From IMG/VR virus record IMGVR_UViG_2541047715_000004: a DNA stretch of 64,000 nt; one strand, given 5' to 3'. The stretch is from a virus (lineage: Duplodnaviria > Heunggongvirae > Uroviricota > Caudoviricetes). Below the pieces are notes generated by a model. That model had not been told where the DNA came from, searched no databases, and was given only the letters and a program-made list of their open reading frames with translations. This document shows positions 234 to 52,920 of the stretch, one piece after another (position 1 is the first letter of the stretch; each line of letters begins with the position of its first letter). The position numbers and the translations under genes are program-made.

Positions 234-499
234 TGCTTAAATCGATTATTAATGGCGCTACAACCACCCCCACCCAACTGGCAAAAGAGATTGTCTTTTA
301 TCACGGTGAGTACGCTGTCATCGCACTGCCGTCAATTCTAGGCGCTGCCGGAATGAAAGCGACAGATCGCGAGTTTGGATTAGTCAGCGAGCAGGTCGTA
401 AAAATCCTCGCTCGTGTATCCAGACTCCTTAATCACGATGCGATTGTATTCGACGAATCCGCCGCTTTAAAACGAATCAACGAAACAAAAGGAGCCTGA
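227..499 (+). CDS. hypothetical protein
   Basis: 90-aa ORF, 4-bp overlap with upstream ORF, same strand as neighbours. Confidence 0.4.
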   Translation: MLMLKSIINGATTTPTQLAKEIVFYHGEYAVIALPSILGAAGMKATDREFGLVSEQVVKILARVSRLLNHDAIVFDESAALKRINETKGA

Positions 500-501
500 T
501 C

Positions 502-2841
502 ATGGCAAAAGGAAAATCCGCACTGGCACTTGCTCTGAAAAAGAAAATCGGTAGCAACGACGAAATTCAGAAAGTAACTCATTGGATTGACACAGGCTTT
601 CCTCCGTTAAACAAAGCTATTTCCGGTCGTTACGATGGCGGTTTCCCATGTGGTCGTATCGTAGAAGTATTCGGGCCACCAAGCGCGGGGAAATGTGTTA
701 CCGCAGACACCATGCTGCTGACGGAGCGTGGAATGGTAACAGTGAAAGAGTTGTTTGAGATTGAAGGGTACAAAGCGACATGCACTACTCGCGATGTAGA
801 GCATAACGTTGGACTCATCAATGAAAATGGCGTGATAGAGAAGACCTCACACCTGACATGGAACAACCGTCGCAAATTCAAGCGTATTAAGCTGGCATCA
901 GGCGGTTATATCGAGGCTACGTTCCGTCACCCAATCCGTGTGGTTGACGACTTAGGTAATGTCGTCTGGCGACATGCTGAAAAAATCAGTGTAGGCGACA
1001 CGATTCCTTCAATGGTTGGCACACATCAATTCGGCGATCAGCACCTGGATGCCAATATCGCAAAACTGATGGGCTATTTAATTGCTGACGGATACGTGGC
1101 CTCTGAAAATTCAGTGAATTTTTCTAACACAGATCCTTTCATCAAGGATGAGTACTACCGCCTCATTTCGCTGGTATCAGACAAGATGCCAGTTACGAGA
1201 AAACATAACGGCTCGGAAGACCATGTGCTGTTTAGCAAAGAGGTGCGTTCGCTGCTTTTTAAAGAATATGGTCTGGAGTATGAGAAAGCTGCTGGCAAGC
1301 AGGTTCCGTTGAGTGTGCGTCGCGCCAATAGCGAGGCTCAAATTGCATTCCTTCGCGGCTACTTTGAGCTGGAATGCCACGTCAATGATGGTCGCTGCAT
1401 TGAGGTTGTGAGCGCGAGTGGGCTGCTGCTACAGCAAATTCGCCTCATGCTCCTGAATCTGGGGATTACGTCAACTATCTCTGAAAAACACGTCGCGGGT
1501 TATGAAAATACATATTACCGGCTGTCATTCAGTGGCTCTAATTACGACCTTTTTCTGTCAACGATTGGTTTCGAATCTCCGGCACGTTTATCAGTGGCAA
1601 CCAAACGGGACATTGGTTTTGACCGCACTTACTCAGGCTATGTTCCGCACATCAGCGGCTTAGTGAAATCACTCTACGAGTCGCTCACCAAGACCACCCG
1701 TGAAGACTACGCTCTGGTAGACCACGTTATTGGCCGCGGCGATCGTGTCGGAATAGACAAACTGCGAGAAATCTATGTCTCCTTCATTGGCAGAAAGAAT
1801 CGTTTTAACGAGCATCTGTTTGCACAACTGGCAGCGGTAATTGGCTCTAACTTGTTCTACGACGAAGTCGTGGCTATTGAGGAAGGTGAAGCACCAACGT
1901 TCGACGTAGCGATGCCGGAAACACACTCTTTCTGGTCTAACGGGATTATCAGCCACAACACATTCCTTGCAACAGCAGCGATGATCTCCGCTCAAAAACA
2001 AGATGGTCTGGCGGTATTCCTCGATCATGAAAACAGTTTTGACGTTGGCCTGGCTGTAGCCAATGGCCTGAACGCAGATGAGGATGACGGTCAGTGGGTA
2101 TACAAGCAGCCAGATACCTTCGAAGACTCTGTAGAGTTGATCGGCACAATACTTAAATTGGTTCGTGATGAAGAGCTTATCCCCGAATCAGCACCTATCT
2201 GTATCGTGGCTGACTCTCTTGCGTCTATGGTTCCGAACTCCAAAGCCGAGAAGTTCGAAAAGATGGCTGAAGGCACAGCCAAAGACAAAGATCAGCTAAA
2301 CATGAACGACAATACGGCACTGGCTCGTGCGACGAGTGCGAACTTCCCTACTCTGGCTTTGTGGGCACGCAAATACAACGCCTGCATCATCTTCTTGAAT
2401 CAGGTTCGCACAAAAATCGGTGTAATGTTTGGCGACCCTACTACGTCGCCAGGTGGAGATTCACCGAAGTTCTACGCTTCTGTACGTATCCGTCTTGGTG
2501 CATCGGTGATGAAGGATGGTAAAGAGAAGATCGGCCAGGACGTAGGCGCAGAATGCATCAAAAACAAAGTTGCACCACCGTATGGCAAATGCACCTGGAA
2601 ATTCTACTTCGATCCTACTCGTGGCCTCGACGTTATCGAATCGCTCGTCGAGTACATGCTGGAAGAAGGATACCTGCCAAAGAACGCCAGCGGGCGAGTT
2701 GAAATTGGTGACAAGAAATACACCAAATCGCAGATCGTCGAGATGTATCGGGAGAAGCCACTGGCTGAAATCATTGCGGCTTTGCAGGCAATCGACGACC
2801 GAAGAGCAAAAGACAACCCCACCGAGCCAGTAGAAGAGTAA
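502..2841 (+). CDS. recA: RecA-family recombinase interrupted by an intein
   Basis: Extein motifs GRIVEVFGPPSAGK..T and LNQVRTKIGVMFGDPTTSPGGDSPKFYASVRIRL closely parallel E. coli RecA P-loop and L2 region; 779 aa because of a 422-aa insertion. Confidence 0.85.
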   Translation: MAKGKSALALALKKKIGSNDEIQKVTHWIDTGFPPLNKAISGRYDGGFPCGRIVEVFGPPSAGKCVTADTMLLTERGMVTVKELFEIEGYKATCTTRDVEHNVGLINENGVIEKTSHLTWNNRRKFKRIKLASGGYIEATFRHPIRVVDDLGNVVWRHAEKISVGDTIPSMVGTHQFGDQHLDANIAKLMGYLIADGYVASENSVNFSNTDPFIKDEYYRLISLVSDKMPVTRKHNGSEDHVLFSKEVRSLLFKEYGLEYEKAAGKQVPLSVRRANSEAQIAFLRGYFELECHVNDGRCIEVVSASGLLLQQIRLMLLNLGITSTISEKHVAGYENTYYRLSFSGSNYDLFLSTIGFESPARLSVATKRDIGFDRTYSGYVPHISGLVKSLYESLTKTTREDYALVDHVIGRGDRVGIDKLREIYVSFIGRKNRFNEHLFAQLAAVIGSNLFYDEVVAIEEGEAPTFDVAMPETHSFWSNGIISHNTFLATAAMISAQKQDGLAVFLDHENSFDVGLAVANGLNADEDDGQWVYKQPDTFEDSVELIGTILKLVRDEELIPESAPICIVADSLASMVPNSKAEKFEKMAEGTAKDKDQLNMNDNTALARATSANFPTLALWARKYNACIIFLNQVRTKIGVMFGDPTTSPGGDSPKFYASVRIRLGASVMKDGKEKIGQDVGAECIKNKVAPPYGKCTWKFYFDPTRGLDVIESLVEYMLEEGYLPKNASGRVEIGDKKYTKSQIVEMYREKPLAEIIAALQAIDDRRAKDNPTEPVEE
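694..1959 (+). mobile_element. intein with LAGLIDADG homing-endonuclease domain inserted in RecA Walker A motif
   Basis: Starts with Cys (TGT at 694) right after GPPSAGK, ends with His-Asn (1954-1959), +1 extein residue Thr; internal LMGYLIADGYV and LRGYFELECH motifs. Confidence 0.8.
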
Positions 2842-9791: not shown

Positions 9792-11704
9792 AGTTTTTAA
9801 AGCTCCAGGTTGAGAATTTTATGGCTATCGCCAGCGCGGAGGTCGAGTTAGATCAGCGTGGTTTAGTGCTTATTCAGGGTGTTAATAGTGATGATAGTTC
9901 CGCATCAAGTAATGGCTCAGGAAAGTCAACTCTAATGAATAGCCTGATGTGGTGTCTTTATGGCGAAACAGCTCATGGTGTGAAGGGTGACGATGTGTTG
10001 TCTACCGACCATGAAAAGAACTGTCGTGTTGCAGTAACCATCGAGGATGAAGGCAAGAGATACGCAATCATTCGTCACCGTAAACACAAAGAGTTCAAAA
10101 ATCGTCTTATCGTTCGTGGTGAAGATGGCGATATGACGAAAGGCAAAGATGCGCTGACGCAGGAGTTCGTCGAGCGTCTGATCGGTGCATCTAAAGAGGT
10201 TTTCATGGCTTCCATCTATGCGAGCCAAGAAGCTATGCCAGATTTACCTGGAATGTCCGACAAAAACCTCAAAACCATCGTAGAAGAAGCCGCTGGCGTT
10301 GACAGACTGACACGCGCCTACGCTATTGCTCGTGAGCGAGCTAATGCAGCTGCCGCACGTATGGATGTGGTTAAAACCAAATTGGAGTCGACAATCTCGA
10401 CCATTGAGGCAACACAGTCAGAAATTGAGTCAGCGAAAGCCTCCTCTGAATCATGGGAGCAAGAGCGTTCTAAACGTTATGACGATGCCCTGGCTGGGCT
10501 GGCCAGTGCCGAAGTTGAGTTAACGGAAGTTGAACTTGAGATCCGCACTCTTCCCGAACAGATACGTGATACCGAGAAGGCAATCGAAAGTGAGCGCAAA
10601 AAGTTAGCCTCAAAAGAAGAACATGACGCCAAGTTGCTCAAAGTTCGTGGTGCGATAACTGATATTCGGGCAAGCATCAAAGCTACAGAAAATAGTCAGG
10701 CTGATGCAATGAGCCGCGCGCGCAATTTTAAGACCAAAGCAGAAGAGGTTGGTACTAAAGTAGGATCACCATGCCCTACTTGTGGCAAAGCCTACTGCGA
10801 AGAAGATCTATCAACGGTGAAGGAGAATTTCATTGAACAAGCACGTCAGGAAATTGGTCAGGCGAAGACACTTGCAGAGGCAATGGCTAAACACAAAACG
10901 AATCTTGAGAAAGCGTTAAGCATTGAGTCTGCCCTTGTTAAAACGACACCTGATGTAACGGCTATCATTGCCCGGATTGAAGAGCTTACGAAACAACTCT
11001 CATCTTTGCGTCATCGTGAGAAGGAGGTTGTTGCTATTGAGTCTCTTGTGACTCGTGCTCGTACTGAGGTCGATCGTATATCAAAAGAGATTAATCCGTT
11101 TATTGCTCTTATCGCCAGACACGAAGATAACTTGGTATCCAGTAAGTCTACCTTCAAGTCCTTAAAAGATGAGTTGAAGGCTATTCAGGAACAAACGTTG
11201 CTATTGGAAAAAGCTCGTCAGGTCTACTCTCCTGCCGGGGTGCGTTCTCATATTTTGACGTCTGTTACGCCTTTCCTGAATACACGCACTGCCGAGTATC
11301 TCAATACGTTGTCTGACGGGAATATTACTGCTGAGTGGTCGACGATGGATGTCACTAAAAAAGGTGAGTATCGCGACAAATTCAACATTAGTGTGCAGAA
11401 GAAAGGTTCAAGTAAGTCGTTCCAGACCCTCTCTGGTGGTGAGAAGCGGAAGGTTCGCATTGCGTGTTCTTTGGCATTGCAGGATCTGGTTAGTAACCGG
11501 GCGAGTAAAAACATCGATTTGTTTATCGGCGACGAAATTGACGATGCACTCGATACAGCCGGTCTTGAACGCCTCATGGGTATTCTGGAGTCCAAAGCTC
11601 GCGAGCGAGGTACTGTGCTGATTATCTCCCATAAAGAGATGAAGTCATGGTTCCGGGAAACTATTACGCTGGAAGTTAAAGAGGGGCGCAGCTATGTCGT
11701 TTAA
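9788..11704 (+). CDS. SbcC/Rad50-like SMC ATPase
   Basis: N-terminal Walker A GSGKST, central coiled coil with CPTCG zinc-hook-like motif, C-terminal LSGGEKRK signature and DEID Walker B. Confidence 0.8.
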   Translation: MKFLKLQVENFMAIASAEVELDQRGLVLIQGVNSDDSSASSNGSGKSTLMNSLMWCLYGETAHGVKGDDVLSTDHEKNCRVAVTIEDEGKRYAIIRHRKHKEFKNRLIVRGEDGDMTKGKDALTQEFVERLIGASKEVFMASIYASQEAMPDLPGMSDKNLKTIVEEAAGVDRLTRAYAIARERANAAAARMDVVKTKLESTISTIEATQSEIESAKASSESWEQERSKRYDDALAGLASAEVELTEVELEIRTLPEQIRDTEKAIESERKKLASKEEHDAKLLKVRGAITDIRASIKATENSQADAMSRARNFKTKAEEVGTKVGSPCPTCGKAYCEEDLSTVKENFIEQARQEIGQAKTLAEAMAKHKTNLEKALSIESALVKTTPDVTAIIARIEELTKQLSSLRHREKEVVAIESLVTRARTEVDRISKEINPFIALIARHEDNLVSSKSTFKSLKDELKAIQEQTLLLEKARQVYSPAGVRSHILTSVTPFLNTRTAEYLNTLSDGNITAEWSTMDVTKKGEYRDKFNISVQKKGSSKSFQTLSGGEKRKVRIACSLALQDLVSNRASKNIDLFIGDEIDDALDTAGLERLMGILESKARERGTVLIISHKEMKSWFRETITLEVKEGRSYVV

Positions 11705-12437
11705 ATTAAGCCGCTCGCAGTTTTTGCAGGTATTTGCAGTGATGCAGTCGATAAAACTGATCAATGGGCATACTTCCAATGGTGCGGCTCCACGTATTCT
11801 GTGGGGCAGCAACAATATTGACGGAGTACAATTCGCCGCGTTGCTTGGTCTAATATCCGAGACGCCATTGATGCAAAGTTTGAAATCACTACCACCTGGA
11901 TGTATTGCGCCGATCCTGATTAATCCTTTTGTTGAGGGGGGATATCTTCCCAACGTCGGGCCTGGGTTTATTGCATCCCATGAAACTGAAGATCTTAACA
12001 TTAATAGCGAAGGGTTCTTTGGGGGAATGGGTGCGCATCACTGTATGGCTTTCACGAACCTTATTCGACTTGCCAATAAGCGGGTGGATAGTTTGGCATC
12101 GCCAGGTGATGCTTTTACTGGTTTCCTTATCCAAAGGAGGGATAAAAAGTACAGTGCGGACAAACTACAGTTTGTTGGTAAGTATGGAGAAATGGTAGAA
12201 ATCGAACTTCAGCTCCCTCATGTTTTAGCAAACGATAGTGCAGACAGTCGGAGGCTATTGGGCATCATGCGTCATTTCATAGCAAGTGGTGTTAAACATG
12301 CCGCAGATAAACGTGTCACGCAGGAAAATGAGTATTCAGACTTTGCAAACTATCCCCAACCAACGTTGCAAACGGCAATAGTAGCCAATTCGTTGGAGGC
12401 GAGATTATTGGAAAACCCTATATGGGGAACATGGTAA
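11694..12437 (+). CDS. hypothetical protein
   Basis: 247-aa ORF, start overlaps upstream stop. Confidence 0.45.
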   Translation: MSFKLSRSQFLQVFAVMQSIKLINGHTSNGAAPRILWGSNNIDGVQFAALLGLISETPLMQSLKSLPPGCIAPILINPFVEGGYLPNVGPGFIASHETEDLNINSEGFFGGMGAHHCMAFTNLIRLANKRVDSLASPGDAFTGFLIQRRDKKYSADKLQFVGKYGEMVEIELQLPHVLANDSADSRRLLGIMRHFIASGVKHAADKRVTQENEYSDFANYPQPTLQTAIVANSLEARLLENPIWGTW

Positions 12438-12446
12438 GGAGACTAT

Positions 12447-13016
12447 ATGAGTAAAAAAATCAGCGTAGTTGGTGTTGATCCCTCTATGAGCAACTTTGGG
12501 CTTGCTGTGGGCACTTTAGACCTTGAAACGGACGAACTTGAGATTCACGGCCTTACTCTTGTTGAGACTAAAGCGGGGAGTAACAAAAAGACCGTTCGTG
12601 TGAACAGTGACGATCTGCGCCGCGCCAGTGAAATATGGCGTGTTGCGAAGCCAATCATTGATAAGGCAAATATGGTTTTTTGTGAGCTACCGGTTGGGAG
12701 CCAAAACTCTCGTTCGCAGACGTCTTACGGTATTTGTATCGGTGTACTTGCGTGTGTGGATAAGCCATTGATCCAGGTTACTCCAAACGAAATCAAGCAT
12801 TTTGTCGGCAATAAACTTACTACATCGAAAGAAGAGATTATCCAGTGGGCTACGAAAAAACACCCTAAAGCACCGTGGCTGCGTCGTAAGCAATCTGGAC
12901 AGGATGTTCTCGTGAACAAAAACGAACATTTGGCTGATGCGGTGGCTGCCATCCATACCGGTATGCAAACAGATCAGTTCCGCCAGGTGCGCGATGTTCT
13001 TAAGTCTCTCATTTGA
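12447..13016 (+). CDS. RuvC-like Holliday-junction resolvase
   Basis: N-terminal VVGVDPSMSNFGLAV and C-terminal ADAVAA resemble RuvC catalytic motifs. Confidence 0.5.
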   Translation: MSKKISVVGVDPSMSNFGLAVGTLDLETDELEIHGLTLVETKAGSNKKTVRVNSDDLRRASEIWRVAKPIIDKANMVFCELPVGSQNSRSQTSYGICIGVLACVDKPLIQVTPNEIKHFVGNKLTTSKEEIIQWATKKHPKAPWLRRKQSGQDVLVNKNEHLADAVAAIHTGMQTDQFRQVRDVLKSLI

Positions 13017-13050
13017 TTTCATTGATAGGTAAGTGCTTATCTATTAACAT

Positions 13051-13080
13051 GGGCCACTATATTTAGTGGCCCTCTTTATT
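13051..13080 (+). terminator. rho-independent terminator
   Basis: Hairpin gggccactatatttagtggccc followed by T-rich run. Confidence 0.5.
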
Positions 13081-13089
13081 TGGTGATAC

Positions 13090-15405
13090 ATGATAAGCAT
13101 CGTAAAACGTAACGGCCAAACAGAGCCGTTATCCGAAGAAAAATACAACCGCGTCGTAATGTATGGCGTAGAAGGCATTCGTGGTGTAAGCGCATCCGCT
13201 GTAGCAATGGGAGCTGCGGCCAGCATTTTTGATGGGATTACCACCAGCCAGTTGCATGAGGCTTTGGTTAAATCTGCCGCTGATTTGATCTCACCAGAAG
13301 CACCAAATTACTCACAGGTGGCTGCCCGCCTGAACATTTTTAAAATCCGCAAAGATGCCTTCGGTCGTTACGACTATCCGAACTTCTACCAACACATTGT
13401 CAAGAACGTTAACAAGGGCGTTTATGACAAGGATTTGCTGACACATTATTCGTTTGAAGAGATCGAAGAACTCGGCAATTACATTAAGCCGAAACGTGAC
13501 GATCTTTTTGGCTATGCAGCTACGGTGCAGTTGCAAAGCAAATACCTCGTTCAAAACCGTGTTACTGGTGAGATTCACGAAGGCCCGCAACATATCTATA
13601 TGCTGGTGGGCATGTGTCTGTTCCAGAATTGGGAAGACGACTGCGCGGGCAAAACACGTATGGAGATGGTCAAAGGTTTCTATGACGTTACAAGTACGTT
13701 CAAACTGTCTCTGCCCACACCAATCATGGCTGGCGTCCGTACTCCAACCCGTCAGTTCTCCAGTTGTGTGCTGATTGAGTCTGGCGATAGTCTGAAAGGG
13801 ATTAGTGCAGCTTCAGCCGCAATTATCGACTACGTTTCACGTCGTGCTGGAATTGGTATTGGTTTTGGCCGTATCCGTGCGCTGGGCAGTGAGATCCGCA
13901 ATGGTGAAGCCACCCATACCGGAGTTATTCCATTCCTGAAGCATTTCCAGACTGCTGTTAAATCTTGCTCGCAAGGTGGTGTTCGTGGTGGCGCAGCAAC
14001 AGCGTTTTACCCGATCTGGCATCTTGAAGTTGAAAGTCTGCTGGTGGTGAAAAATAACCGTGGTATTGATGAAAACCGCGTTCGCCATCTTGATTACGGC
14101 GTCATGAGTAACCGTCTAATGTACCGTCGACTCGTCAGAAGCGAGAACATCACTCTGTTCAGCCCGCATGATGTGCCTGATATGTACGAAGCCTTCTTCA
14201 CAGACCAGGATCTGTTTGAAAAGCTGTACCATAAATACGAAGCCGATGATTCAATTCGCAAGAAGTCAGTACCTGCCATTGAGCTGTTCTCATCTCTGAT
14301 GCAGGAACGAGCGTCCACGGGCCGAATTTATATTGCGAACGTCGATCATATTAATGAGCATGGCGCTTTCATTCCTGCTCTTGCACCTGTCCGCCAGTCA
14401 AACCTGTGCATGGAGATCACTCTACCCACTCGTCCACTGGCATTTACCGACGACCCGAACGGTGAGATCGCGCTATGCACTTTATCCGCTTTTAACCTCG
14501 GAGCCATCCGTTCACTGGAGTCTCTTAAAGAGGTGGCGTTCTATGCCGTTGCTGCACTGGATTCGTTACTGGATTATCAAGACTATCCGATGGAGGCAGC
14601 CGAAGTGCCTGCCAAAGCTCGTCGTAGCTTGGGAATTGGTGTAACCAACTTTGCTTATTACCTGGCAAAGAATGGCGTTCGTTATTCTGATACCGCTGGC
14701 AATAAACTGGTGCATGAAACGTTCGAAGCTATCCAGTATTACCTTCTTGATGCCAGCTGCCGACTTGCTGAAGCAAAAGGTGAGTGTGACTGGTTTGAGC
14801 AGACCAAGTACGCAATTGGTCAGTTGCCGATCGACCATTACCGTTCTTCATTAGACGAAAGTGGCGAAACCAACTTTGAGTTAAAGATGCCGTGGGAAGA
14901 ACTGCGTGAACGTATTGCAAAATACGGCCTTCGCAACTCCACACTGACGGCACAAATGCCATGCGAGACTTCCAGCCAGATCACTAATTCCACCAACGGC
15001 ATCGAACCGCCTCGTGGCCCGGTGTCGGTGAAATCTTCTAAGGACGGCATCGTTAAGATGGTCGTGCCTGAGTTTGAAAAACTGAAGGAACAGTATGAAT
15101 ACCTGTGGGATATGCCGGACAACCGCGGCTATCTGACAAAGGTGGCGATCATCCAGAAGTTCTTTGACCAGGCTATTTCAGCCAATACCAACTATGACCC
15201 TTCTCGCTTTGAAGGCGATAAAGTCCCAATGATGACGCTACTGTCAGATTTGCTTCTCGCCTACAAGATGGGAGTTAAAACGCTTTACTACCACAACACC
15301 AGAGATGGGGCAGGAAAGCGTGATGACGACGAACCGCAGAATCCACTGACGCAAGCTGTAGCCGTCGAGCCAGAAGATGAGTGCGACGGAGCCTGCAAAA
15401 TCTGA
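13090..15405 (+). CDS. nrdA: ribonucleotide reductase class Ia large subunit
   Basis: Collinear with E. coli NrdA along its length, e.g. TPTRQFSSCVLIE, CSQGGVRGGAAT, NLCMEI, C-terminal CDGACKI. Confidence 0.92.
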   Translation: MISIVKRNGQTEPLSEEKYNRVVMYGVEGIRGVSASAVAMGAAASIFDGITTSQLHEALVKSAADLISPEAPNYSQVAARLNIFKIRKDAFGRYDYPNFYQHIVKNVNKGVYDKDLLTHYSFEEIEELGNYIKPKRDDLFGYAATVQLQSKYLVQNRVTGEIHEGPQHIYMLVGMCLFQNWEDDCAGKTRMEMVKGFYDVTSTFKLSLPTPIMAGVRTPTRQFSSCVLIESGDSLKGISAASAAIIDYVSRRAGIGIGFGRIRALGSEIRNGEATHTGVIPFLKHFQTAVKSCSQGGVRGGAATAFYPIWHLEVESLLVVKNNRGIDENRVRHLDYGVMSNRLMYRRLVRSENITLFSPHDVPDMYEAFFTDQDLFEKLYHKYEADDSIRKKSVPAIELFSSLMQERASTGRIYIANVDHINEHGAFIPALAPVRQSNLCMEITLPTRPLAFTDDPNGEIALCTLSAFNLGAIRSLESLKEVAFYAVAALDSLLDYQDYPMEAAEVPAKARRSLGIGVTNFAYYLAKNGVRYSDTAGNKLVHETFEAIQYYLLDASCRLAEAKGECDWFEQTKYAIGQLPIDHYRSSLDESGETNFELKMPWEELRERIAKYGLRNSTLTAQMPCETSSQITNSTNGIEPPRGPVSVKSSKDGIVKMVVPEFEKLKEQYEYLWDMPDNRGYLTKVAIIQKFFDQAISANTNYDPSRFEGDKVPMMTLLSDLLLAYKMGVKTLYYHNTRDGAGKRDDDEPQNPLTQAVAVEPEDECDGACKI

Positions 15406-46531: not shown

Positions 46532-47053
46532 TTAAAACGGAAGGATTCGTTCAACCCAATCGAAGAAAATAAGTATTTTTCTACCGTCTTCCAACTTAAG
46601 TGTGACTAGACAGGCGTCAACGCCATCTGACGTTCCCTCAATTTCGCGACCGTCTGCCATGTAGACCCTTATAGATTTGCCGTTTTGGTAAGCCTGACGA
46701 CATATCTTAAAAAAGTCACGACGTGATGGCTGATTAACCATCTGTTCATTGTTTAGCGTTAGTCGACCTGTGAATGAAGTGTCAACCTCTTCTATGCCCG
46801 ACTCAATTGTGCTAATGCGCTCAAGAGGGAGCCTTATACGATTTGTGTTGCTAAGCGGATCTGGTGTGAGGTTCAGCTTATTTCTTGCGCTCAATAGCCC
46901 GTAGACATACATGCAAAACACTTGGCCGTCTTCGAGAGTGACTCTTACAGGAAATTTTGCACTCCGCCAGAAGAGCAAGGTGCGCTCAGCATGTTCGTAG
47001 TCTCGCGGCCAGACTTCAGCCGGTATGCCGTAGGTGATGTCCAATGTTCTCAT
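46532..47053 (-). CDS. hypothetical protein
   Basis: 173-aa ORF overlapping upstream gene by ATGA; terminator hairpin aataaccggacttagccggttatt downstream. Confidence 0.5.
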   Translation of the reverse strand: MRTLDITYGIPAEVWPRDYEHAERTLLFWRSAKFPVRVTLEDGQVFCMYVYGLLSARNKLNLTPDPLSNTNRIRLPLERISTIESGIEEVDTSFTGRLTLNNEQMVNQPSRRDFFKICRQAYQNGKSIRVYMADGREIEGTSDGVDACLVTLKLEDGRKILIFFDWVERILPF

Positions 47054-47643
47054 TCTGATACTCTTAGAGGTGTTTTCAGCAACCCAAATTTAAATTCTTT
47101 GTTACCAACGACAAAGAAGGGAACCTCAACATAGATTTTTTTATCGACGGATTTAGAGTTAGCTGTTTTATGTATGTCACGAACGATACGTTTTGAGATA
47201 TTTTCATCGATAAACAATACCTTTCCACTTGTATTCCCTTCAGCCTTGGCGTAAGTAACGATAGGCTCTTCATTGCCAACCCTAATGTTTACTTGGCAAC
47301 CTGTTGTAGCCATTTCATCACAGTAAAGTGTGCCGTCTTGAACTTCCAAAACAATTCCAGATGGCTTCATGGCTTCGTCAGAGCTTACATTAACGTTTTC
47401 TGGTACAGCGGTCCCGTTAATTTGCAACCGTAATCTTTCTTTTCCTGCATTAAGTATTGTTTCTTCTGCGTTATCTGAGAATCTGAACCAGACTGGTTGA
47501 ATCAGACCTCGTGATTCGTATTTTAGTACGTCTTCAGAAGTATACATGCTGTACGTTTTTTGCATGTCGGAGACGATATCTGACAACGCATTTGCGGAAA
47601 ATGACGAGAGGTATATACAAGCAAGAAGTAACGAACGTTTCAT
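47050..47643 (-). CDS. hypothetical secreted protein
   Basis: N-terminal signal peptide MKRSLLLACIYLSSFSANA. Confidence 0.5.
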   Translation of the reverse strand: MKRSLLLACIYLSSFSANALSDIVSDMQKTYSMYTSEDVLKYESRGLIQPVWFRFSDNAEETILNAGKERLRLQINGTAVPENVNVSSDEAMKPSGIVLEVQDGTLYCDEMATTGCQVNIRVGNEEPIVTYAKAEGNTSGKVLFIDENISKRIVRDIHKTANSKSVDKKIYVEVPFFVVGNKEFKFGLLKTPLRVSE

Positions 47644-47823
47644 TTTTATACAGCGATTATTGCAAAGTAGAATTATAAATATCCAATAGTCTCAAACGAT
47701 AAGTTTTCAACTGTAAATAGCAGACGTGTTTCTCTAAAAGCTGTGCGGCAAAGGCGTTGTTGCCGCACTCTGTCTATTAGCTCTTCAAGTCTGGCAATTC
47801 TGAAATTGACTAAGAATCCAATA

Positions 47824-48102
47824 TTACGGCAGTTTGCTTAGAATTTGCTCTAAATCTTCCTTTGTCATATTAGAGTTCTCATAGATGCGCATGATTTTCT
47901 CACGAGCCTTAGCAGAGACTCCAACGGCAGATGAAACTTTGTCAAATTCAGCCATTGTCATCGCTTCCAGAATGGTATTGATAACTTCAGCCTTAGACAT
48001 TTTGATGTTTTTTTCTTTTAGTTTCATTTGAAACTTTCCAAGTTTGTCATTGGCCTTATCGGACAATGCCACCTGACAATAAGTTGTTTTCTTTTCGCTC
48101 AT
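47824..48102 (-). CDS. small hypothetical protein
   Basis: 92 aa, immediately downstream of helicase gene; terminator hairpin gtgcggcaa...ttgccgcac follows on minus strand. Confidence 0.45.
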   Translation of the reverse strand: MSEKKTTYCQVALSDKANDKLGKFQMKLKEKNIKMSKAEVINTILEAMTMAEFDKVSSAVGVSAKAREKIMRIYENSNMTKEDLEQILSKLP

Positions 48103-48104
48103 AA

Positions 48105-49664
48105 CTAATCTCGTTTCAGAACTCCAAAATCGAATGCGCCATCAATAGGCAATACACCTTCTGCAAAGCCAGGTGTGGTGTCGATGATGTGTTTTCGCTC
48201 ATAAGAGTGAGACAACAGGTATTTGTTGCTAATGTCAATGAAATCAGTGATAAAACACACGTTTGCCTGATTTTTTTTGGCTCGTAAGCCACGACCGACA
48301 CGCTGTCTCATTTCAACTTCTGCTTTCCCACCACCAGCAAGAATGACCGCACCAACGCTTGGCACATCAACACCGACATCCAGAATAGTCGAGCCTATTA
48401 AAACATCTATTTCTCCAGACGCTAAACTGTTCAGCTTTGCTTGCCTTGTCGCCTGGTTAGATTCCCCATAGATGAAGTCAACTCTAAGGCCGGACTCTTT
48501 CATCATTTCCATCAGGATTTGCCCGTGGCGTTTAAGACGAACCAGAGTCATACAATTGAGAGAATGTTGCTTATAGAGCAATGCTTCGCGAACAATGGCC
48601 TCGTTACGTCCCAAATTATACACGATCCCCAACTGATAAGCCTTTTGGTAGGCGGTGCTCATACCAACTCTAAAATTGAGGTGTTTGTTGGCAAGTTCGG
48701 CCTTGATTCTGGCCTCGTCTGGCTTGTAGGCAACTTTATGATAAAGGAAGTACGGCTTTGCCAGAATGCCTCGATCAATCAGGTACTTTTCTGTGACTTT
48801 AATTTCAATTCGCCCGGCCACCGCCATCAGGCGCATGTTGGCTTCCGTCGAATCCTTCATGAACGGCGTGGCTGTAAGCGCCAGACGATAGTCTGCGTTC
48901 ACACATAATCTGGCGATGTCATAGAAATTTGAGCCTGAAGACTCATGCGCCTCTTCCAGAATAAGAAGAGAGACACTTGAAAGGAAGCGTTTCACCAACT
49001 CCCGACGTTTGAGGTGGTAGCTCTTTTTATCTGGTGTTGCATCGCGTGGTGGTTCTTCGAGGAAACTTGCAAGAGTTTGAACTGTAGCGACGTTGATATG
49101 TCGTGATACCTGGAACTCACCCGAGCCAATGACTCCAACCTTTTGGTCTTTTAACCACGGTTCGCCATTTTCGGCGCGGTAGTCGATGGATCTCTGGAAG
49201 TTTTCGGCCATTTGAAACATCAGAACAGAGCGGGTTGTTAAAAATAATGTCATTCGACCGATACGTGCAGCTGCTTTGCAGGCAACATTAGATTTCCCGC
49301 CACCAGTAGCGATCTGCGCAATCATCATTCCCTCTCGAACCAGTGTTTCCACAGTCTGATCCTGATACGCATAATCAGGATTGTATGGGAATGGGTTAAC
49401 CGCCGGATTTGGTTTTCCAAGCGCCGGGGCTTTGTCTTTGCGGATATGAACACATTTGATGCCCGCCTTGTTCAAGTTCGCCGCTACAGGCTTGGCAAAG
49501 CCAGCAGGGAACGAGTTTTTACTCCAGTTGAACATCGTGCTTGTGCCCTTCCAGTCGCCAGTCTCGACTTCGTAGCTCAACATTTGCTGCACCAGTTGCT
49601 TTACCTTGTCATCTGCGCCAGAAATAAGCGCATTTACTGCGTTAGATACAATCCGAACAGTCAT
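48105..49664 (-). CDS. superfamily 2 DEAD/DEAH-type helicase
   Basis: Motif I ATGGGKS, motif II LILEEAH, motif III LTATP, motif VI QRVGRGLR. Confidence 0.7.
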   Translation of the reverse strand: MTVRIVSNAVNALISGADDKVKQLVQQMLSYEVETGDWKGTSTMFNWSKNSFPAGFAKPVAANLNKAGIKCVHIRKDKAPALGKPNPAVNPFPYNPDYAYQDQTVETLVREGMMIAQIATGGGKSNVACKAAARIGRMTLFLTTRSVLMFQMAENFQRSIDYRAENGEPWLKDQKVGVIGSGEFQVSRHINVATVQTLASFLEEPPRDATPDKKSYHLKRRELVKRFLSSVSLLILEEAHESSGSNFYDIARLCVNADYRLALTATPFMKDSTEANMRLMAVAGRIEIKVTEKYLIDRGILAKPYFLYHKVAYKPDEARIKAELANKHLNFRVGMSTAYQKAYQLGIVYNLGRNEAIVREALLYKQHSLNCMTLVRLKRHGQILMEMMKESGLRVDFIYGESNQATRQAKLNSLASGEIDVLIGSTILDVGVDVPSVGAVILAGGGKAEVEMRQRVGRGLRAKKNQANVCFITDFIDISNKYLLSHSYERKHIIDTTPGFAEGVLPIDGAFDFGVLKRD

Positions 49665-49746
49665 AAACCTCTTTCCTTAGTGCCTTTTGTATGTTATTTG
49701 GCTATTATAATAAGTAAGTGATTACTTAGTGGATTGTAGCAATAAA

Positions 49747-50427
49747 ATGGATGTAAAAATCACGATTTTGCAGGTTGATGTTGCCAACCTTCGCCCGAAT
49801 ACCTGGAACACCAATTCGGTTGGTGCGCAGAATTTTGAAAAACTGAAAGGTTCTATCGAAAAATTGGGCTTTTTTAAGCCAATTTTGGCTCGTGAACTTG
49901 AAGATGGATTTTTTGAAATCCTAGGCGGCGAACATCGCTGGCGTGCTGCTATTGAGCAAGGAATTTCAACGGTTCCGGTGCTTTCTGTGGGCAAAATTAG
50001 CGATGTCGTAGCTAAACAGATGTCACTGGTGGACAACGAGCGATACGGTGAAGACGACCAAATCGCATTGCAACGCTTCATTGAAGAAATTCAGTCAGAA
50101 CTTGACTATCAACTGTCTGAAATCGCCCCGTATGACGACGAAATCTCGATGGTTTTAGCAAAAGAGGCGGCAATCGACCTTGAAGCACTGGAGGCGTTGT
50201 CTCGTGGTAGTGATGAGCCTGTCGATACCGACAAACGAGAGAAAACCGAACGTGTGGGGGCGGAACATCAGACCATGCGCTTCAAAGTAACTTTCGATGC
50301 GTCAGATCGTGTTGCAGAAACCATAAAAAACATCATCAAAGAGCAGGCTATTAACACCGGTAATGAAATGGAGAACGCTGGTGAGGCTCTGGTGTGGCTG
50401 GTCGACTACTACAAGGAGCGTATGTAA
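49747..50427 (+). CDS. ParB/Srx-fold nuclease-domain protein
   Basis: ILGGEHRWRAA matches ParB box II type motif; start taken at MDVKITIL. Confidence 0.55.
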   Translation: MDVKITILQVDVANLRPNTWNTNSVGAQNFEKLKGSIEKLGFFKPILARELEDGFFEILGGEHRWRAAIEQGISTVPVLSVGKISDVVAKQMSLVDNERYGEDDQIALQRFIEEIQSELDYQLSEIAPYDDEISMVLAKEAAIDLEALEALSRGSDEPVDTDKREKTERVGAEHQTMRFKVTFDASDRVAETIKNIIKEQAINTGNEMENAGEALVWLVDYYKERM

Positions 50428-51095
50428 TGACCAAAAAGTTTGAAATCGTATATCGCGACCCGGCAGATCTTATTCCCTATGAGATGAATGCCAAAAAGCA
50501 TGATGAACAGCAGATCCGAGATCTGGCCGCAGCCATTAAAAAGCGCGGATTTGACCAGCCAATTACGGTCGATAAGAACGACGTAATTATTACTGGCCAC
50601 GGCCGCCGTGAGGCTGCAATTTTTGCTGGACTTGAGCGCGTGCCGGTTATTGTTCGCGATGATCTGAGTGATGACGAGGTACGTGCAAAGCGCCTTGAAG
50701 ATAACCGACTTGCCAGCATTGATTACGATGCAATTAAGCTACAGAAAGAGCTTGAGTCGCTTGTTCTGGACGATATCGAGGTTTTCGGCTTCGAAGAGCG
50801 TGAGTTGAATGTTCTCGTTGGCAGTATGACAGAAGAAATGGACACCGACTCGCTAGTTATCGATCTTGGCGAAGAAACTAAACGACAGAAGGATGAACAC
50901 ACCGAGATCAGTCGTGAAGTTGCAGCGGAAGAAGTACGTGTTGTCGACGTATTGGGCTTTAAAACGCTCCCTGCTGGCTCTGCCATTGTTGTTGGTGATT
51001 TGCTTGCCCATATGGAAGAAATGACGGGAGAAAGCGGGGTAGACGCATTTGTGGCATATGCGGAGAAGATCTCTTCCGGGGAGATGGCTGCATGA
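50427..51095 (+). CDS. second ParB/Srx-fold domain protein
   Basis: IITGHGRREAA motif; start taken at MTKKFEIVY, overlapping upstream stop. Confidence 0.55.
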   Translation: MTKKFEIVYRDPADLIPYEMNAKKHDEQQIRDLAAAIKKRGFDQPITVDKNDVIITGHGRREAAIFAGLERVPVIVRDDLSDDEVRAKRLEDNRLASIDYDAIKLQKELESLVLDDIEVFGFEERELNVLVGSMTEEMDTDSLVIDLGEETKRQKDEHTEISREVAAEEVRVVDVLGFKTLPAGSAIVVGDLLAHMEEMTGESGVDAFVAYAEKISSGEMAA

Positions 51096-51757
51096 GCAAA
51101 TACATCATCAACGTATCGTTTCAGACACGCGTAAATAAAACCACGCGCACGTTGGAAATCGCTGAGTCGTTCGGGCTTGGCCTGGACGAAAAAGAGTGGA
51201 CGCTTTACGACAATCTGGAGCTGGAAGTGAAGCAGGGCGATGTGGTGTACATCACCGGCCAATCCGGTTCCGGCAAATCCGTTGTGCTGCGCGAGTTGCA
51301 ACGACAGATGAAGGATGAAGGGCTGTCTGTAGCCTCCATCGATGATTTTACCTTCGATAATGAGGTTAACGTCATCGATCAGTTGGGCAAAACGACCAGT
51401 GATGCGCTTGGGTTGTTATCTATGGCTGGTCTGAACGATGCATATCTGTTTGTTCGCAAGCCTTCTGAAATGTCAGACGGCCAGAAATATCGTCTCAAGA
51501 TTGCCAAACTGATTGAGTCAGGCGCTAAAGTATGGGCTGCTGACGAGTTCGGCGCTGTTCTCGACCGTGTAACCGCTCAGGTTGTGGCGTCTAACCTCCA
51601 GCGTGCCGCTCGAAAGGTTGGTGCGACGGTAATGGTGGCGACGACTCACGAAGACCTGAAGAACGCGCTGCGCCCTGATATGCAGATCACCAAGCACTAC
51701 AAAGAACGCGTGAAGGTGGAATATCACAATGGTAGTCATGATGAGGTCCATTCATGA
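51092..51757 (+). CDS. small ABC-type P-loop ATPase
   Basis: Walker A GQSGSGKS, signature-like SDGQKYRL, Walker B VWAADEF, H-loop-like ATTHED. Confidence 0.55.
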   Translation: MSKYIINVSFQTRVNKTTRTLEIAESFGLGLDEKEWTLYDNLELEVKQGDVVYITGQSGSGKSVVLRELQRQMKDEGLSVASIDDFTFDNEVNVIDQLGKTTSDALGLLSMAGLNDAYLFVRKPSEMSDGQKYRLKIAKLIESGAKVWAADEFGAVLDRVTAQVVASNLQRAARKVGATVMVATTHEDLKNALRPDMQITKHYKERVKVEYHNGSHDEVHS

Positions 51758-52644
51758 CGGACATCATCATTAAACGCTACCGCCCTGAAGAGTTTCCGCG
51801 TCATCTGGACTTTCTGGAGCGAATGACTGTTACAAAGGGAACTGTAGAGGACTGGCACGCTCTTAAATCGCTTCACTACAAAACAGACGGCAAACCTTTC
51901 GCGCCAACATACTATCGCTGCGAACTGGATGACCGTCTGGTGGGCGTCGTGGTTATGGCTTACCCGAAACTTCTGCTGGCACCTCGCCATCGCATGTTTC
52001 CTAAGTTGAAACCAACTACCAATACCACCGTGGCTAACCAGTACTGGGGTCGGTACGTGAATAACAACTTTGCGGTGATCAGCCGCTCAGTTGTGGATAC
52101 TCAGTACCGTGGCGTAGGCGTCTCTTATCGAATGATTAACCTGGTTAGCAGGATGCATGACCGGCCAATCATTGAGATCCAGTCATCGATGAGCAAATAC
52201 AATCCCTTCGCCATGAAAGCAGGGTTTAAGTTCATCCGCCCTGAGCGACCGAAGAGCTATGAAAGTGCACTGCGTGTATTCCAGCGCCATTTCCGTTCCG
52301 ACCCGGGTGATAACGAGGCGATCGTCAAAGAGTTGTTCGCAATGAGCGAGTCTCGTCGTCGCCGTGCACTGCGTGATCTGGTGGCGGACTACCACAAGAA
52401 CAGTTCCCTGGCAAAAGCTGGGCGGAATCGTGGCACGACGATTCAGGACATTGCCGACAGTCTGGTGGACGAGGCCAGCATTGTGAAGCTGCTCAAGGAC
52501 ATTCACAACCTGAGCTTTACGTCTCCGTTGTATGGTGTGTACCGAAACCCTGACTTTGGCCGTCGACTGCCTGACACGCTGCCACTGCTGGCATTCGACA
52601 AACAACCTTTGGATAAACCGTTAGAAATTGCTTTACCGGCATAA
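51754..52644 (+). CDS. hypothetical protein, possibly GNAT-fold
   Basis: YRGVGVSYRM resembles acetyl-CoA binding motif R/QxxGxG/A; weak. Confidence 0.3.
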   Translation: MTDIIIKRYRPEEFPRHLDFLERMTVTKGTVEDWHALKSLHYKTDGKPFAPTYYRCELDDRLVGVVVMAYPKLLLAPRHRMFPKLKPTTNTTVANQYWGRYVNNNFAVISRSVVDTQYRGVGVSYRMINLVSRMHDRPIIEIQSSMSKYNPFAMKAGFKFIRPERPKSYESALRVFQRHFRSDPGDNEAIVKELFAMSESRRRRALRDLVADYHKNSSLAKAGRNRGTTIQDIADSLVDEASIVKLLKDIHNLSFTSPLYGVYRNPDFGRRLPDTLPLLAFDKQPLDKPLEIALPA

Positions 52645-52653
52645 GGATTTGCC

Positions 52654-52920
52654 ATGACGTTAACCGATAAACAAAAGGACATCATCAAAACGCTCAATCT
52701 CGGTTATGAGCGAGGTCATCTACTTGACCTGGACGAATTGCTTGAAGTTTTGCCGTACAAGACAACCAAGCAAAGTATCCAGTTCTCAATTCGCGCTCTG
52801 ATAAAAAAGGGGCTGGTGGAGAAAGGGCATACGCGCCAACGCAGTGACAATCGCTATCACCGCCGGACTCTTGGGTTAACCACTTTAGGTCGAGCCAAAG
52901 CGAAGTTACTGGTGATGTAA
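52654..52920 (+). CDS. small putative DNA-binding protein
   Basis: 88 aa, basic C-terminus; helix-turn-helix-like segment. Confidence 0.35.
   Translation: MTLTDKQKDIIKTLNLGYERGHLLDLDELLEVLPYKTTKQSIQFSIRALIKKGLVEKGHTRQRSDNRYHRRTLGLTTLGRAKAKLLVM

Follow-up and report, generated by a model that had tools for sequence, protein, structure and literature searches.

The helicase UvsW of bacteriophage T4 (PDB 2OCA and 1RIF; Pfam UvsW_N, PF21241, with ResIII/Helicase_C) is the closest known relative of the helicase described here. UvsW promotes branch migration, unwinds R-loops and reactivates forks, D10 of phage T5 is a branch-migration enzyme, and UvsW, D10 and XPB are one another's closest relatives (PMC5180179). 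In T4-like phages a conserved 76-aa ORF, uvsW.1, lies directly 3′ of uvsW and is followed by a conserved terminator (PMC1524935). UvsW relatives occur in T4-like, Herelleviridae and Ackermannviridae phages. The 76-aa UvsW.1 protein was reportedly found by Kerr et al. in 2007 to be an HRDC-like four-helix bundle. Phage-plasmid P1 carries many operators controlled by C1, which are asymmetric in sequence, one of them lying before the ban helicase operon. SSU5-like phage-plasmids, which may carry resistance genes, are common in Enterobacteriaceae, among them clinical E. coli, Klebsiella and Salmonella. To our knowledge, the lytic replication of these elements is essentially unstudied. A literature search on the helicase of SSU5 and of phage-plasmids gave nothing, and the paper on phage Cyrano (PMC9928086) is silent on the gene.

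The element and its helicase gene pair

The window (the whole 64,000-nt stretch of DNA analysed) is 97–98% identical at the nucleotide level to the E. coli phages Cyrano/pLF82 and PhiR41_1; the Cyrano alignment covers 93% of window positions 1–25000 at 98.5% identity. SSU5 is 76.5% identical to the window in the helicase region. Cyrano is the same element as pLF82 and produces siphovirus virions (PMC9928086). Based on this near-identity and on a gene order common to SSU5, pLF82 and pHCM2-type elements, we class the element as an SSU5-like phage-plasmid of E. coli. The helicase gene and its surroundings on the downstream side comprise the following features.

48105–49664, minus strand: predicted UvsW-family SF2 (DExH-type) DNA helicase, 519-aa ORF with an ATG start
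47824–48102, minus strand: predicted ribbon-helix-helix (RHH; CopG/ParG-like) protein with a C-terminal two-helix extension, PHROG 1466, 92-aa ORF with an ATG start
47743–47768, no strand assigned: GC-rich hairpin with a 9-bp stem, a terminator-like site in the scan, 3′ of the 92-aa ORF

Both ORFs of the initial annotation were recovered on the minus strand, and codon differences and homologues mark both as real genes. In comparison with SSU5, the helicase shows 249 synonymous and 39 non-synonymous codon differences and the 92-aa ORF 34 and 36, respectively; against Cyrano, the 92-aa ORF shows 20 synonymous and 10 non-synonymous differences. Searches returned 1918 helicase homologues at E ≤ 1e-10, and homologues of the 92-aa ORF were also found. 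Only 2 nt separate the helicase stop codon TAG from the next ATG, and the hairpin beyond the 92-aa ORF, which reads GTGCGGCAACAACGCCTTTGCCGCAC then AGCTTTTAG on the minus strand, is likely the end of the transcription unit, where it would act as a terminator. This hairpin and the 2-nt gap make a bicistronic unit plausible. The initial annotation, which gave the 92-aa protein no identity, had presented the two genes as co-transcribed; we keep this as plausible, and the pairing itself is conserved. Among 81 SSU5-like (close) loci, 79 have an RHH gene 3′ of the helicase in the same orientation, as do 63 of 81 distant loci, and the pair recurs across a broad range of ~100-kb phages. Many of the distant loci have a gene for a small membrane protein between the two, so that the coupling is not tight in general.

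Family assignment of the helicase

The helicase passed the Pfam cut-offs for ResIII (1e-14), DEAD (3e-14) and Helicase_C (5e-13). The motifs ATGGGKS, LEEAHE, TATP and QRVGRGLR are present and invariant in 30 homologues, so that motifs I, II, III and VI of an SF2 motor are intact across the ResIII/DEAD N-lobe and Helicase_C. The protein had been described as a DEAH-type helicase; the SF2 assignment stands, but motif II is EEAH, not a literal DEAH, which makes the helicase a DExH-type variant, while T4 UvsW has DECH at this position. The N-terminal extension, put earlier at about 110 aa, does exist; the length before the motor is rather ~95–100 aa, made up of a folded domain (residues 1–77) and a linker.

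49380–49664, minus strand: predicted UvsW_N-like beta/alpha domain (aa 1–77) and linker, together aa 1 to ~95 of the helicase, from AF2 and profile

The AF2 model of this domain has strands at residues 3–7 and 11–15, a helix at 19–28, strands at 30–35, 38–43 and 51–53, a helix at 54–66 and a strand at 71–75. The family profile aligns with UvsW residues 15–112, including the G-W-x-G-R...FP-x-G motif, and superposition on 1RIF (N-domain and first motor domain) matched 244 of 282 residues. Pfam UvsW_N (cut-off 25.3 bits) was passed by the homologues P0063, P0069 and P0098 (48–51% identity) with 34.2, 28.8 and 27.9 bits; the window helicase itself gave no direct match to this model, either as the whole protein or as the N-terminal 98 aa alone.

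Searching the PDB with the helicase profile retrieved T4 UvsW at E 1e-27, colinear over UvsW residues 15–461, and BLASTP against T4 UvsW gave E 4e-16 over residues 36–502 at ~21% identity. A tblastn search of the window with T4 UvsW returned only a 16-aa fragment, inside the helicase. By profile, UvsW is the nearest characterised relative, before XPB, RecG and others, and the depositor's annotation is likewise 'UvsW helicase'. Whether the protein was UvsW/RecG-like or ResIII-like had been left to profile searches, and these place it in the UvsW family, with a predicted UvsW_N-like N-terminal domain. We assign the 519-aa protein to the UvsW-family SF2 helicases, with a predicted DNA-binding domain of the UvsW_N type, two RecA-like motor domains and intact catalytic motifs; it is an ordinary recombination/repair-type helicase related to T4 UvsW. 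T5 D10 is similar by description, as it lies in the UvsW/XPB neighbourhood of SF2 and a role in recombination-dependent replication has been proposed for it (PMC5180179). Both D10 and the window helicase fall in the broad PHROG class 'DNA helicase', a likeness from which the sequence-dependent unwinding of D10 cannot be inferred for the window helicase.

Recombination genes and proposed role

The earlier observation that no polymerase or primase is visible in the window is strictly true, yet the window does encode RepA (Rep3_N), a DnaQ-like exonuclease, RNase H, a RecA with an intein, and SbcD-like and SbcC-like proteins (SbcCD). The recombination genes lie 25–47 kb from the helicase in the window and are not its neighbours. 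The Cyrano record (98.5% identical) annotates UvsY, a gp32-like SSB, RuvC and Pol III alpha, and the gene for the last of these ends ~4.3 kb before the position where the window begins. With window genes and Cyrano annotations taken together, a UvsX/UvsY/gp32/gp46-47-type set co-occurs with the helicase. The recombination set of the element would be a complete one in the style of T4, with a UvsW-type helicase among its members, which predicts recombination-dependent replication in a temperate siphovirus-plasmid, in contrast to the virulent myovirus T4.

The best joint explanation of the locus, which we consider reasonably probable, is a UvsW-like recombination helicase with an RHH regulator or accessory and a palindrome-bearing promoter. 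By analogy with T4 UvsW and T5 D10, branched DNA is most likely the substrate on which the helicase would translocate; it would drive the migration of D-loops and Holliday junctions, reverse stalled forks and clear R-loops during lytic, recombination-dependent replication of the SSU5-like phage-plasmid. Its likely partners would be the element's own RecA/UvsX-like recombinase, UvsY-like mediator, gp32-like SSB, SbcCD (gp46/47-like) nuclease and RuvC-like resolvase. This outcome overturns no current view, and its main use lies in annotation and as a basis for experiments.

Gene order and the divergent ParB/ABC cluster

On its upstream side the helicase faces a cluster of genes on the other strand.

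49747–52920, plus strand: divergent cluster of two ParB-like proteins, an ABC-type ATPase, a 296-aa protein and an 88-aa winged-helix protein (context, outside the unit)

The divergence reported initially holds, with the ParB-like genes starting 82 nt away on the opposite strand, as counted from the ATG at 49747 that the Cyrano record gives as the start. Comparison of the neighbourhoods revealed that the helicase is tightly syntenic with the ParB/ABC/terminase cluster: a divergent ParB-like gene lies less than 300 nt from the helicase (median 65 nt) in 66 of 76 distant loci, and homologues of the ABC-type ATPase, the 296-aa and the 88-aa protein come next in most of these 66. In Pseudomonas phage hairong the order is helicase / ParB, ParB, ABC ... 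TerL, portal, and the order is equal in metagenomic, Methylomicrobium-associated and Vreelandella contigs. Assignment to a known replicative helicase family in conserved synteny with replication genes would have counted against the initial annotation, and this holds only by half: the family is known, but the conserved synteny is with the cluster of ParB, ParB and ABC ATPase that leads to the terminase and not with replication genes.

This synteny, the single palindrome between the helicase unit and the ParB unit, and the SSU5 and Cyrano records, which physically end just past the ParB/ABC cluster that precedes the terminase, would also suit a reading in which the helicase and the whole cluster form one DNA-transaction module and the protein is not a general recombination helicase. 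We regard such a module as rather unlikely. Gene order is shared genome-wide in these phages, so that neighbours at the edge of a module do not have to act together. The T4 locus, the sole relative's locus examined, has UvsW away from any ParB/ABC-type cluster, which sets it apart from the window helicase, and neither a fusion nor any other physical link turned up. Clearing of branches before packaging would, moreover, itself be a UvsW-type activity. Examples of what a joint module might do are processing or resolution of branched concatemers before packaging, handling of a pac/cos site, and a DNA-modification or partition-like function.

The predicted ribbon-helix-helix protein

The 92-aa protein matched phrog_1466 (E 1e-45), a PHROG of unknown function. 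Its family profile with the window protein as first row (A7) had CopG as the best PDB match (E 7e-4, profile positions 7–47), followed by Reg576, MazE7 and ParG, and the sister-subfamily profile (A6) also retrieved CopG (E 1.9e-4) together with MazE7, Reg576 and ParG. One family member, L088, passed Pfam ParG (22.1 bits; cut-off 21.4). The first HMM iteration from SSU5-type small proteins missed the distant ones at E < 1e-3; the link between close and distant RHH proteins was built from hand-picked seeds and checked independently by hhalign, in which the A4 and A6 subfamily profiles matched with a probability of 95% (E 4e-8). No significant match came from the single sequence or from the A4 profile by itself; single-sequence searches of the PDB and Pfam returned noise (designed helical repeats, and the SRP54 M-domain below threshold), and the RHH half alone gave no relevant Pfam match. 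The AF2 model (pLDDT 84) shows an extended N-terminus and helices at residues 15–30, 37–47, 50–76 and 81–89.

By profile, the family has the N-terminal beta-strand, helix A, tight turn and helix B of the fold. Based on these results we assign the 92-aa protein as a ribbon-helix-helix protein whose C-terminus forms a helical tail, predicted to dimerise and to bind DNA. Its ~45 N-terminal residues span the whole CopG RHH (E 2e-4 to 7e-4), and the small gene at a regulated operon is a further likeness to CopG/ParG/Arc-MetJ proteins. In contrast to CopG-type proteins, it carries an extra C-terminal helical extension of ~45 residues, which ends in a conserved motif of its own, (M/L)(T/S)xE(D/Q)LExLL; the inter-helix turn is K-x-S-K or L-T-Q-G, not always G-x-S, and the gene is not first in its operon, unlike those of usual autoregulators. 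Most likely, the protein would be a small DNA-binding regulator or accessory of its own operon. PHROG 1466 gains a fold assignment and the status of a conserved helicase companion.

The position of the gene, directly after the helicase and before a hairpin, equals that of uvsW.1, and the sizes of the two products are similar. The 92-aa protein could, on this ground, be a counterpart of T4 UvsW.1, that is, an accessory protein, small and helical, with the helicase and/or structured DNA as its binding target, and not a transcription factor. The linkage kept across the clade would fit such a role, and the conserved C-terminal motif could serve as a protein-contact peptide. Homology to UvsW.1 was rejected, as hhalign gave a probability of 0.1% for both subfamily profiles, UvsW.1 was absent from the fold-search matches, and no sequence or fold similarity was detected; the small ORFs 3′ of the two helicases are unrelated. 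No helicase–RHH fusions were present among the homologues examined, and the Pseudomonas Nickievirus phage hairong has the helicase and lacks the RHH partner. A UvsW.1-like accessory is, in our judgement, unlikely, and we continue with the RHH protein as a regulator or accessory of its own operon.

The intergenic palindrome and candidate promoter

The region between the helicase and the ParB-like genes contains two further features.

49711–49728, no strand assigned: 18-bp palindrome TAAGTAAGTGATTACTTA, an inverted repeat with 7-nt arms and a 4-nt spacer
49704–49712, minus strand: candidate −10-like hexamers TATTAT / TATAAT for the helicase operon, read from the sequence

With up to 3 mismatches allowed, the palindrome pattern had 22 matches in the window against 2.8 expected, and none of 100 shuffles had as many. 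It is conserved in SSU5-like loci, and in distant relatives TAAGTCA-N4-TGACTTA stands at the equal place upstream of the helicase. The copy at 49711–49728 is one of a dispersed operator-like motif, a putative operator. At least 10 further operons of the window have the palindrome in front of them, with copies for example at 2882, 13026, 22579 and 56507; joint regulation of the helicase with the other lytic genes is therefore probable, and the motif offers a handle on how these genes are controlled. The −10-like hexamers overlap the end of the palindrome in a register equal to that of other copies. In a sigma-70 consensus scan the stretch between the helicase and ParB genes yielded no promoter, because the −35 element is poor. 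The promoter of the helicase operon would have the palindrome in its spacer and −10 region, and repression may act through this palindrome. As with the C1 operators of P1, one motif has many promoter-region copies across a phage-plasmid, one of them before a helicase operon; the sequence differs and is palindromic here, and the likeness would be one of analogy, not homology. A direct repeat of 10 nt, TTCCTTAGTG/TTACTTAGTG, in the same intergenic region lacks conservation in SSU5-type sequences and was treated as chance.

We also compared candidate binders with the two half-site types, GTAA and GTCA. The beta-strand residues of the RHH proteins do not cleanly follow these types. In the 88-aa winged-helix protein (52654–52920), all of the 13 distinct sequences of the GTAA type read 'IKKG', and those from GTCA-type loci mostly have other residues there, a pattern that is confounded by phylogeny, has an exception in L160 and allows no conclusion on the palindrome binder. 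It is decidedly unlikely that the RHH protein is a sequence-specific partner dedicated to the helicase and recognises the palindromes at 10 or more operon promoters, including its own. If it were, the protein would be the clade's global regulator of lytic genes, or would bring the helicase to R-loops near promoters or to origins; this would amount to a sequence-targeted UvsW system without described precedent.

Other SF2 helicase families

The motor of archaeal/eukaryotic XPB (Rad25) is nearly as similar to the window helicase as that of UvsW. Single-sequence phmmer put archaeal XPBII first (E 2e-12) with UvsW behind it (5.5e-8), and matches to NCBIfam repair_heli_XPB (E 1e-13) and Pfam ERCC3_RAD25_C (E 9e-5) were found, both under their cut-offs. 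On this reading the protein would be a translocase of the XPB/Rad25 type, active in repair or associated with transcription, and no orthologue of UvsW. We find this very improbable: the XPB matches are restricted to the motor and come with no TFIIH/NER context, whereas the family profile ranks UvsW first with an alignment from residue 15 that takes in the N-terminal domain, and homologues carry Pfam UvsW_N. We retain the UvsW-family assignment.

The initial annotation had offered replication or defence/anti-defence as alternatives, and the second of these found no support, a Pbe or Dnd-associated helicase-nuclease restriction system, or a toxin-antitoxin pair whose antitoxin is the RHH protein, being extremely improbable: matches to PADLOC PbeA (E 7e-23), type IV restriction helicase models and NCBIfam dnd_restrict_1 (E 3e-16) are limited to the shared SF2 motor (far under the family cut-offs for PbeA and dnd_restrict_1, with 59.6 bits against 600 in the latter; residues 97–481 for the PbeA models, whose first ~250 positions are unmatched), the N-terminus is predicted to be UvsW_N-like and neither a nuclease nor a sensor domain is present, PbeB-D and other partner genes are missing from the neighbourhood, the gene position is fixed in a large phage clade, unlike that of mobile defence islands, and, although RHH proteins are often antitoxins and MazE7, ParD and VapB are among the weak matches, the RHH gene is 3′ and not 5′ of its partner and the helicase is no known toxin type. 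Pbe and Dnd-associated restriction helicases were rejected as identities, with no full-length match above cut-off. Where homologues of the UvsW-family helicase are longer than the window protein, the extra length comes not from C-terminal extensions but from internal insertions near residues 202–211 or 34.

Organization of the helicase locus

The initial annotation had described a 519-aa helicase ORF and a 92-aa ORF facing away from a ParB-like cluster, and this layout was correct; the two ORFs lie on the minus strand. Two bases, TT, separate the helicase stop codon (TAG) from the ATG of the 92-aa ORF. The cluster begins on the opposite strand, at a distance of 82 nt from the start of the helicase. 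The features of the locus are as follows.

47050..47643, minus strand, 197-aa protein, signal-peptide-like at its N-terminus; a separate gene beyond the hairpin, directly after the helicase operon (phrog_18942, database label 'unknown function')
47743-47768, GC-rich hairpin 3' of the 92-aa ORF (sequence and terminator scan)
47824-48102, minus strand, 92-aa small protein
48105-49664, minus strand, 519-aa helicase
49711-49728, perfect 18-bp palindrome TAAGTAA-GTGA-TTACTTA in the helicase/ParB intergenic region (inverted-repeat scan)
49747..52920, plus strand, divergent cluster of two ParB_N proteins, an ABC-type ATPase, a 296-aa protein and an 88-aa winged-helix-like protein (Pfam/PHROGs)

Family assignment of the helicase

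Pfam detected ResIII, DEAD and Helicase_C domains in the helicase, and PHROGs placed it in phrog_16 ('DNA helicase'). In a single-sequence search, the nearest solved proteins were archaeal XPBII (2e-12), Rad25, RecG and T4 UvsW (5.5e-8). When a profile built from 30 helicase homologues was used, T4 UvsW came at the top (E 1e-27) with XPBII behind it (2e-24); the alignment spanned UvsW residues 15 to 461, including the N-terminal domain, where a conserved G-W-D-G-R ... P-F/A-G motif was found. Pairwise BLASTP against T4 UvsW gave 21% identity over residues 36-502 (E 4e-16). An AlphaFold2 model based on the same homologue alignment was confident (pLDDT 89, pTM 0.85), and 244 of its residues aligned to 1RIF; because that structure comprises the N-terminal domain and only the first motor domain, we infer that the modelled N-terminal domain superposes on its counterpart in 1RIF. 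The Pfam gathering score for UvsW_N was passed by homologues 48–51% identical to the window helicase; the helicase itself gave no UvsW_N match, either as the full protein or as its N-terminal part, and the domain evidence is therefore indirect. The helicase has complete catalytic motifs I, II, III and VI, which do not vary within the family. The protein had been called a DEAH-type helicase with an N-terminal extension of about 110 aa; both the helicase and the extension stand, but motif II reads LEEAHE and about 95–100 aa precede the motor.

On this evidence, we conclude that the 519-aa protein is a UvsW-family helicase, with a small margin over XPB. Such a margin is expected, since UvsW, T5 D10 and XPB are mutually closest among characterised relatives (PMC5180179). 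The helicase is an additional member of a known family and is already so named in one public record: that of Escherichia phage Cyrano labels the pair 'UvsW helicase' and 'hypothetical protein', and RefSeq SSU5 labels it 'DEAD/DEAH box helicase' and 'hypothetical protein'.

Replicon gene content and proposed function

For the helicase region, identity to Escherichia phages PhiR41_1, CMS-2020a and Cyrano is 96.5–97.1%; to Salmonella phage SSU5 it is 76.5%. Window positions 1-25000 align with Cyrano at 98.5%, and 39001-64000 with CMS-2020a and PhiR41_1 at 94–97%. Cyrano and plasmid pLF82 of E. coli LF82 are one and the same, an SSU5-like phage-plasmid from which siphovirus particles are produced (PMC9928086).

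The earlier remark that no polymerase or primase is visible remains accurate as to a polymerase gene, which is absent from the window, but RepA, RecA, SbcD-like and SbcC-like proteins, a DnaQ-like exonuclease and RNase H are present, together with Dam. RecA (502..2841, plus strand; 779 aa in total) is interrupted by a LAGLIDADG homing-endonuclease intein. The Cyrano annotation lists a UvsY-like mediator, a gp32-like SSB, a RuvC-like resolvase and Pol III alpha. This is a T4-type gene set for recombination-dependent replication, the process in which UvsW performs branch migration, fork reactivation and R-loop removal (PMC5180179). Given this set in the same replicon and the role of UvsW, the helicase would act in a UvsW-like manner in recombination-dependent replication, as its family membership and the gene content suggest. 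The alternative that helicase and partner form a defence module was unsupported.

The small partner and its linkage to the helicase

PHROGs placed the 92-aa protein in phrog_1466 (database label 'unknown function'). Its close relatives were confined to SSU5-like elements, and its profile retrieved only 27 clusters from 1.84 billion representatives. In its sequence, a short strand of alternating hydrophobic residues (CQVALS) is followed by a helix, which a K-M-S-K turn joins to a second helix (AEVINTILEAM); this is the pattern of a predicted ribbon-helix-helix (RHH) protein, with two further helices beyond it. Small ORFs of the same design lie just downstream of the helicase in distant loci; a profile of 23 of them matched the SSU5-type profile over its full length in hhalign (probability 95%, E 4e-8). 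The best solved relative of the distant profile was the CopG repressor (E 1.9e-4); MazE7, Reg576, ORF56 and ParG, all of them RHH proteins, came next. With a merged profile that had the window protein at its head, CopG was again first (E 7e-4), with the whole RHH covered, and one family member passed the Pfam ParG model. The small protein holds the same position after the helicase as T4 UvsW.1, a conserved ORF of unassigned function downstream of uvsW (PMC1524935); kinship between the two was ruled out by profile comparison.

Among SSU5-like loci having the small gene, it directly follows the helicase in 79 of 81. The distant set comprised 81 loci with helicases 47–83% identical to the reference helicase P0106; an RHH homologue was found in 63, always downstream and on the same strand. 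It directly adjoins the helicase in 15 of these loci, is preceded in most of the others by a gene for a ~63-aa predicted membrane protein (gap 220–900 nt), and lies 1.5–4.2 kb away in a few. The intervening protein (MNHALLLNLAI...PYGLL...acidic...IGF) occurs in many distant relatives (L096-L121 and others, e.g. the L099:3406-3597 region). No RHH gene was found in Pseudomonas phage hairong (Nickievirus; helicase 40% identical), and no helicase-RHH fusion was seen among the homologues examined. The RHH assignment and its clade-wide linkage to the helicase are a modest addition. Compared with Cyrano, nucleotide identity is 88.5% for the small ORF and 97.9% for the adjoining helicase, a difference that points to a recombination boundary or to faster evolution from the helicase 3' end.

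The divergent ParB cluster

Of 76 distant loci, 66 have a ParB-like gene lying divergently within 300 nt of the helicase; after it come the ABC ATPase, homologues of the 296-aa and 88-aa proteins, and then terminase and portal. As this arrangement is conserved across loci, the helicase marks a constant border between modules in a large clade of phages of ~100 kb; the adjacency may reflect either a joint function or mere conserved genome order. The position of the cluster just upstream of terminase/portal is conserved across the whole clade, and the linear records of SSU5 and Cyrano end right after it. Pfam gave no match for the 296-aa protein, which the Cyrano annotation relates to MK0520 (an ATPase–acetyltransferase fusion).

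In a Methylomicrobium-associated contig (L087), a 796-aa gene with intein-splicing and LAGLIDADG domains occupies the terminase position (443-2833, minus strand), and a small Tad2-like gene (PF11195; 5437-5727) lies inside the ParB/ABC cluster. A related element (L088) is possibly integrated in Vreelandella, since it lies within a 4.2-Mb chromosome record; it carries an MmeI-type restriction-modification gene (11417-14143, minus strand) 1.8 kb downstream of the helicase.

A dispersed palindrome

The window was searched for the intergenic palindrome with up to 3 mismatches, and 22 matches were observed against 2.8 expected (0 of 100 shuffles reached this number). The dispersed 18-mer has the consensus TA(A/G)GTAAGTNNTTAC(C/T)TA. 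Besides 49711, good copies start at 2882, 8342, 13026, 17738, 22579, 24797, 55000, 56507, 58423 and 61998, all intergenic and just upstream of recombination, nucleotide-metabolism and virion-protein genes. The last two bases of each good copy begin a -10-like hexamer, and in two copies TTGAAA lies exactly one base upstream; the palindrome therefore fills the promoter spacer, a textbook position for a repressor. In the copy at 49711, the corresponding -10 (TATTAT/TATAAT) is oriented towards the helicase. The palindrome is conserved in SSU5-type sequences, and in distant relatives TAAGTCA-N4-TGACTTA occupies the same place ahead of the helicase, with TATACT or ACTATAAT after it. It looks like a candidate genome-wide operator/promoter element of the phage-plasmid, which would tie the helicase operon to other lytic operons, again a modest addition.

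In the 88-aa protein (52654..52920, plus strand), the presumed recognition-helix region reads RALIKKG in all loci with GTAA half-sites in the palindrome ahead of the helicase (homologues from L001-L168) and is mostly different (xH, xR) in those with GTCA half-sites. These residues may covary with the half-sites, a comparison confounded by phylogeny. In the RHH protein, the beta-strand residues showed no clean correspondence with the two half-site types.

Downstream of the operon, the accessory region at the 197-aa gene differs among Cyrano, SSU5 and the window. Next to it, a 173-aa protein (46532..47053, minus strand) has a full-length Pfam Flag1_repress match (FljA, phase-1 flagellin repressor; E 1e-68); carried on a phage-plasmid, this FljA-like protein could alter host flagellar expression.
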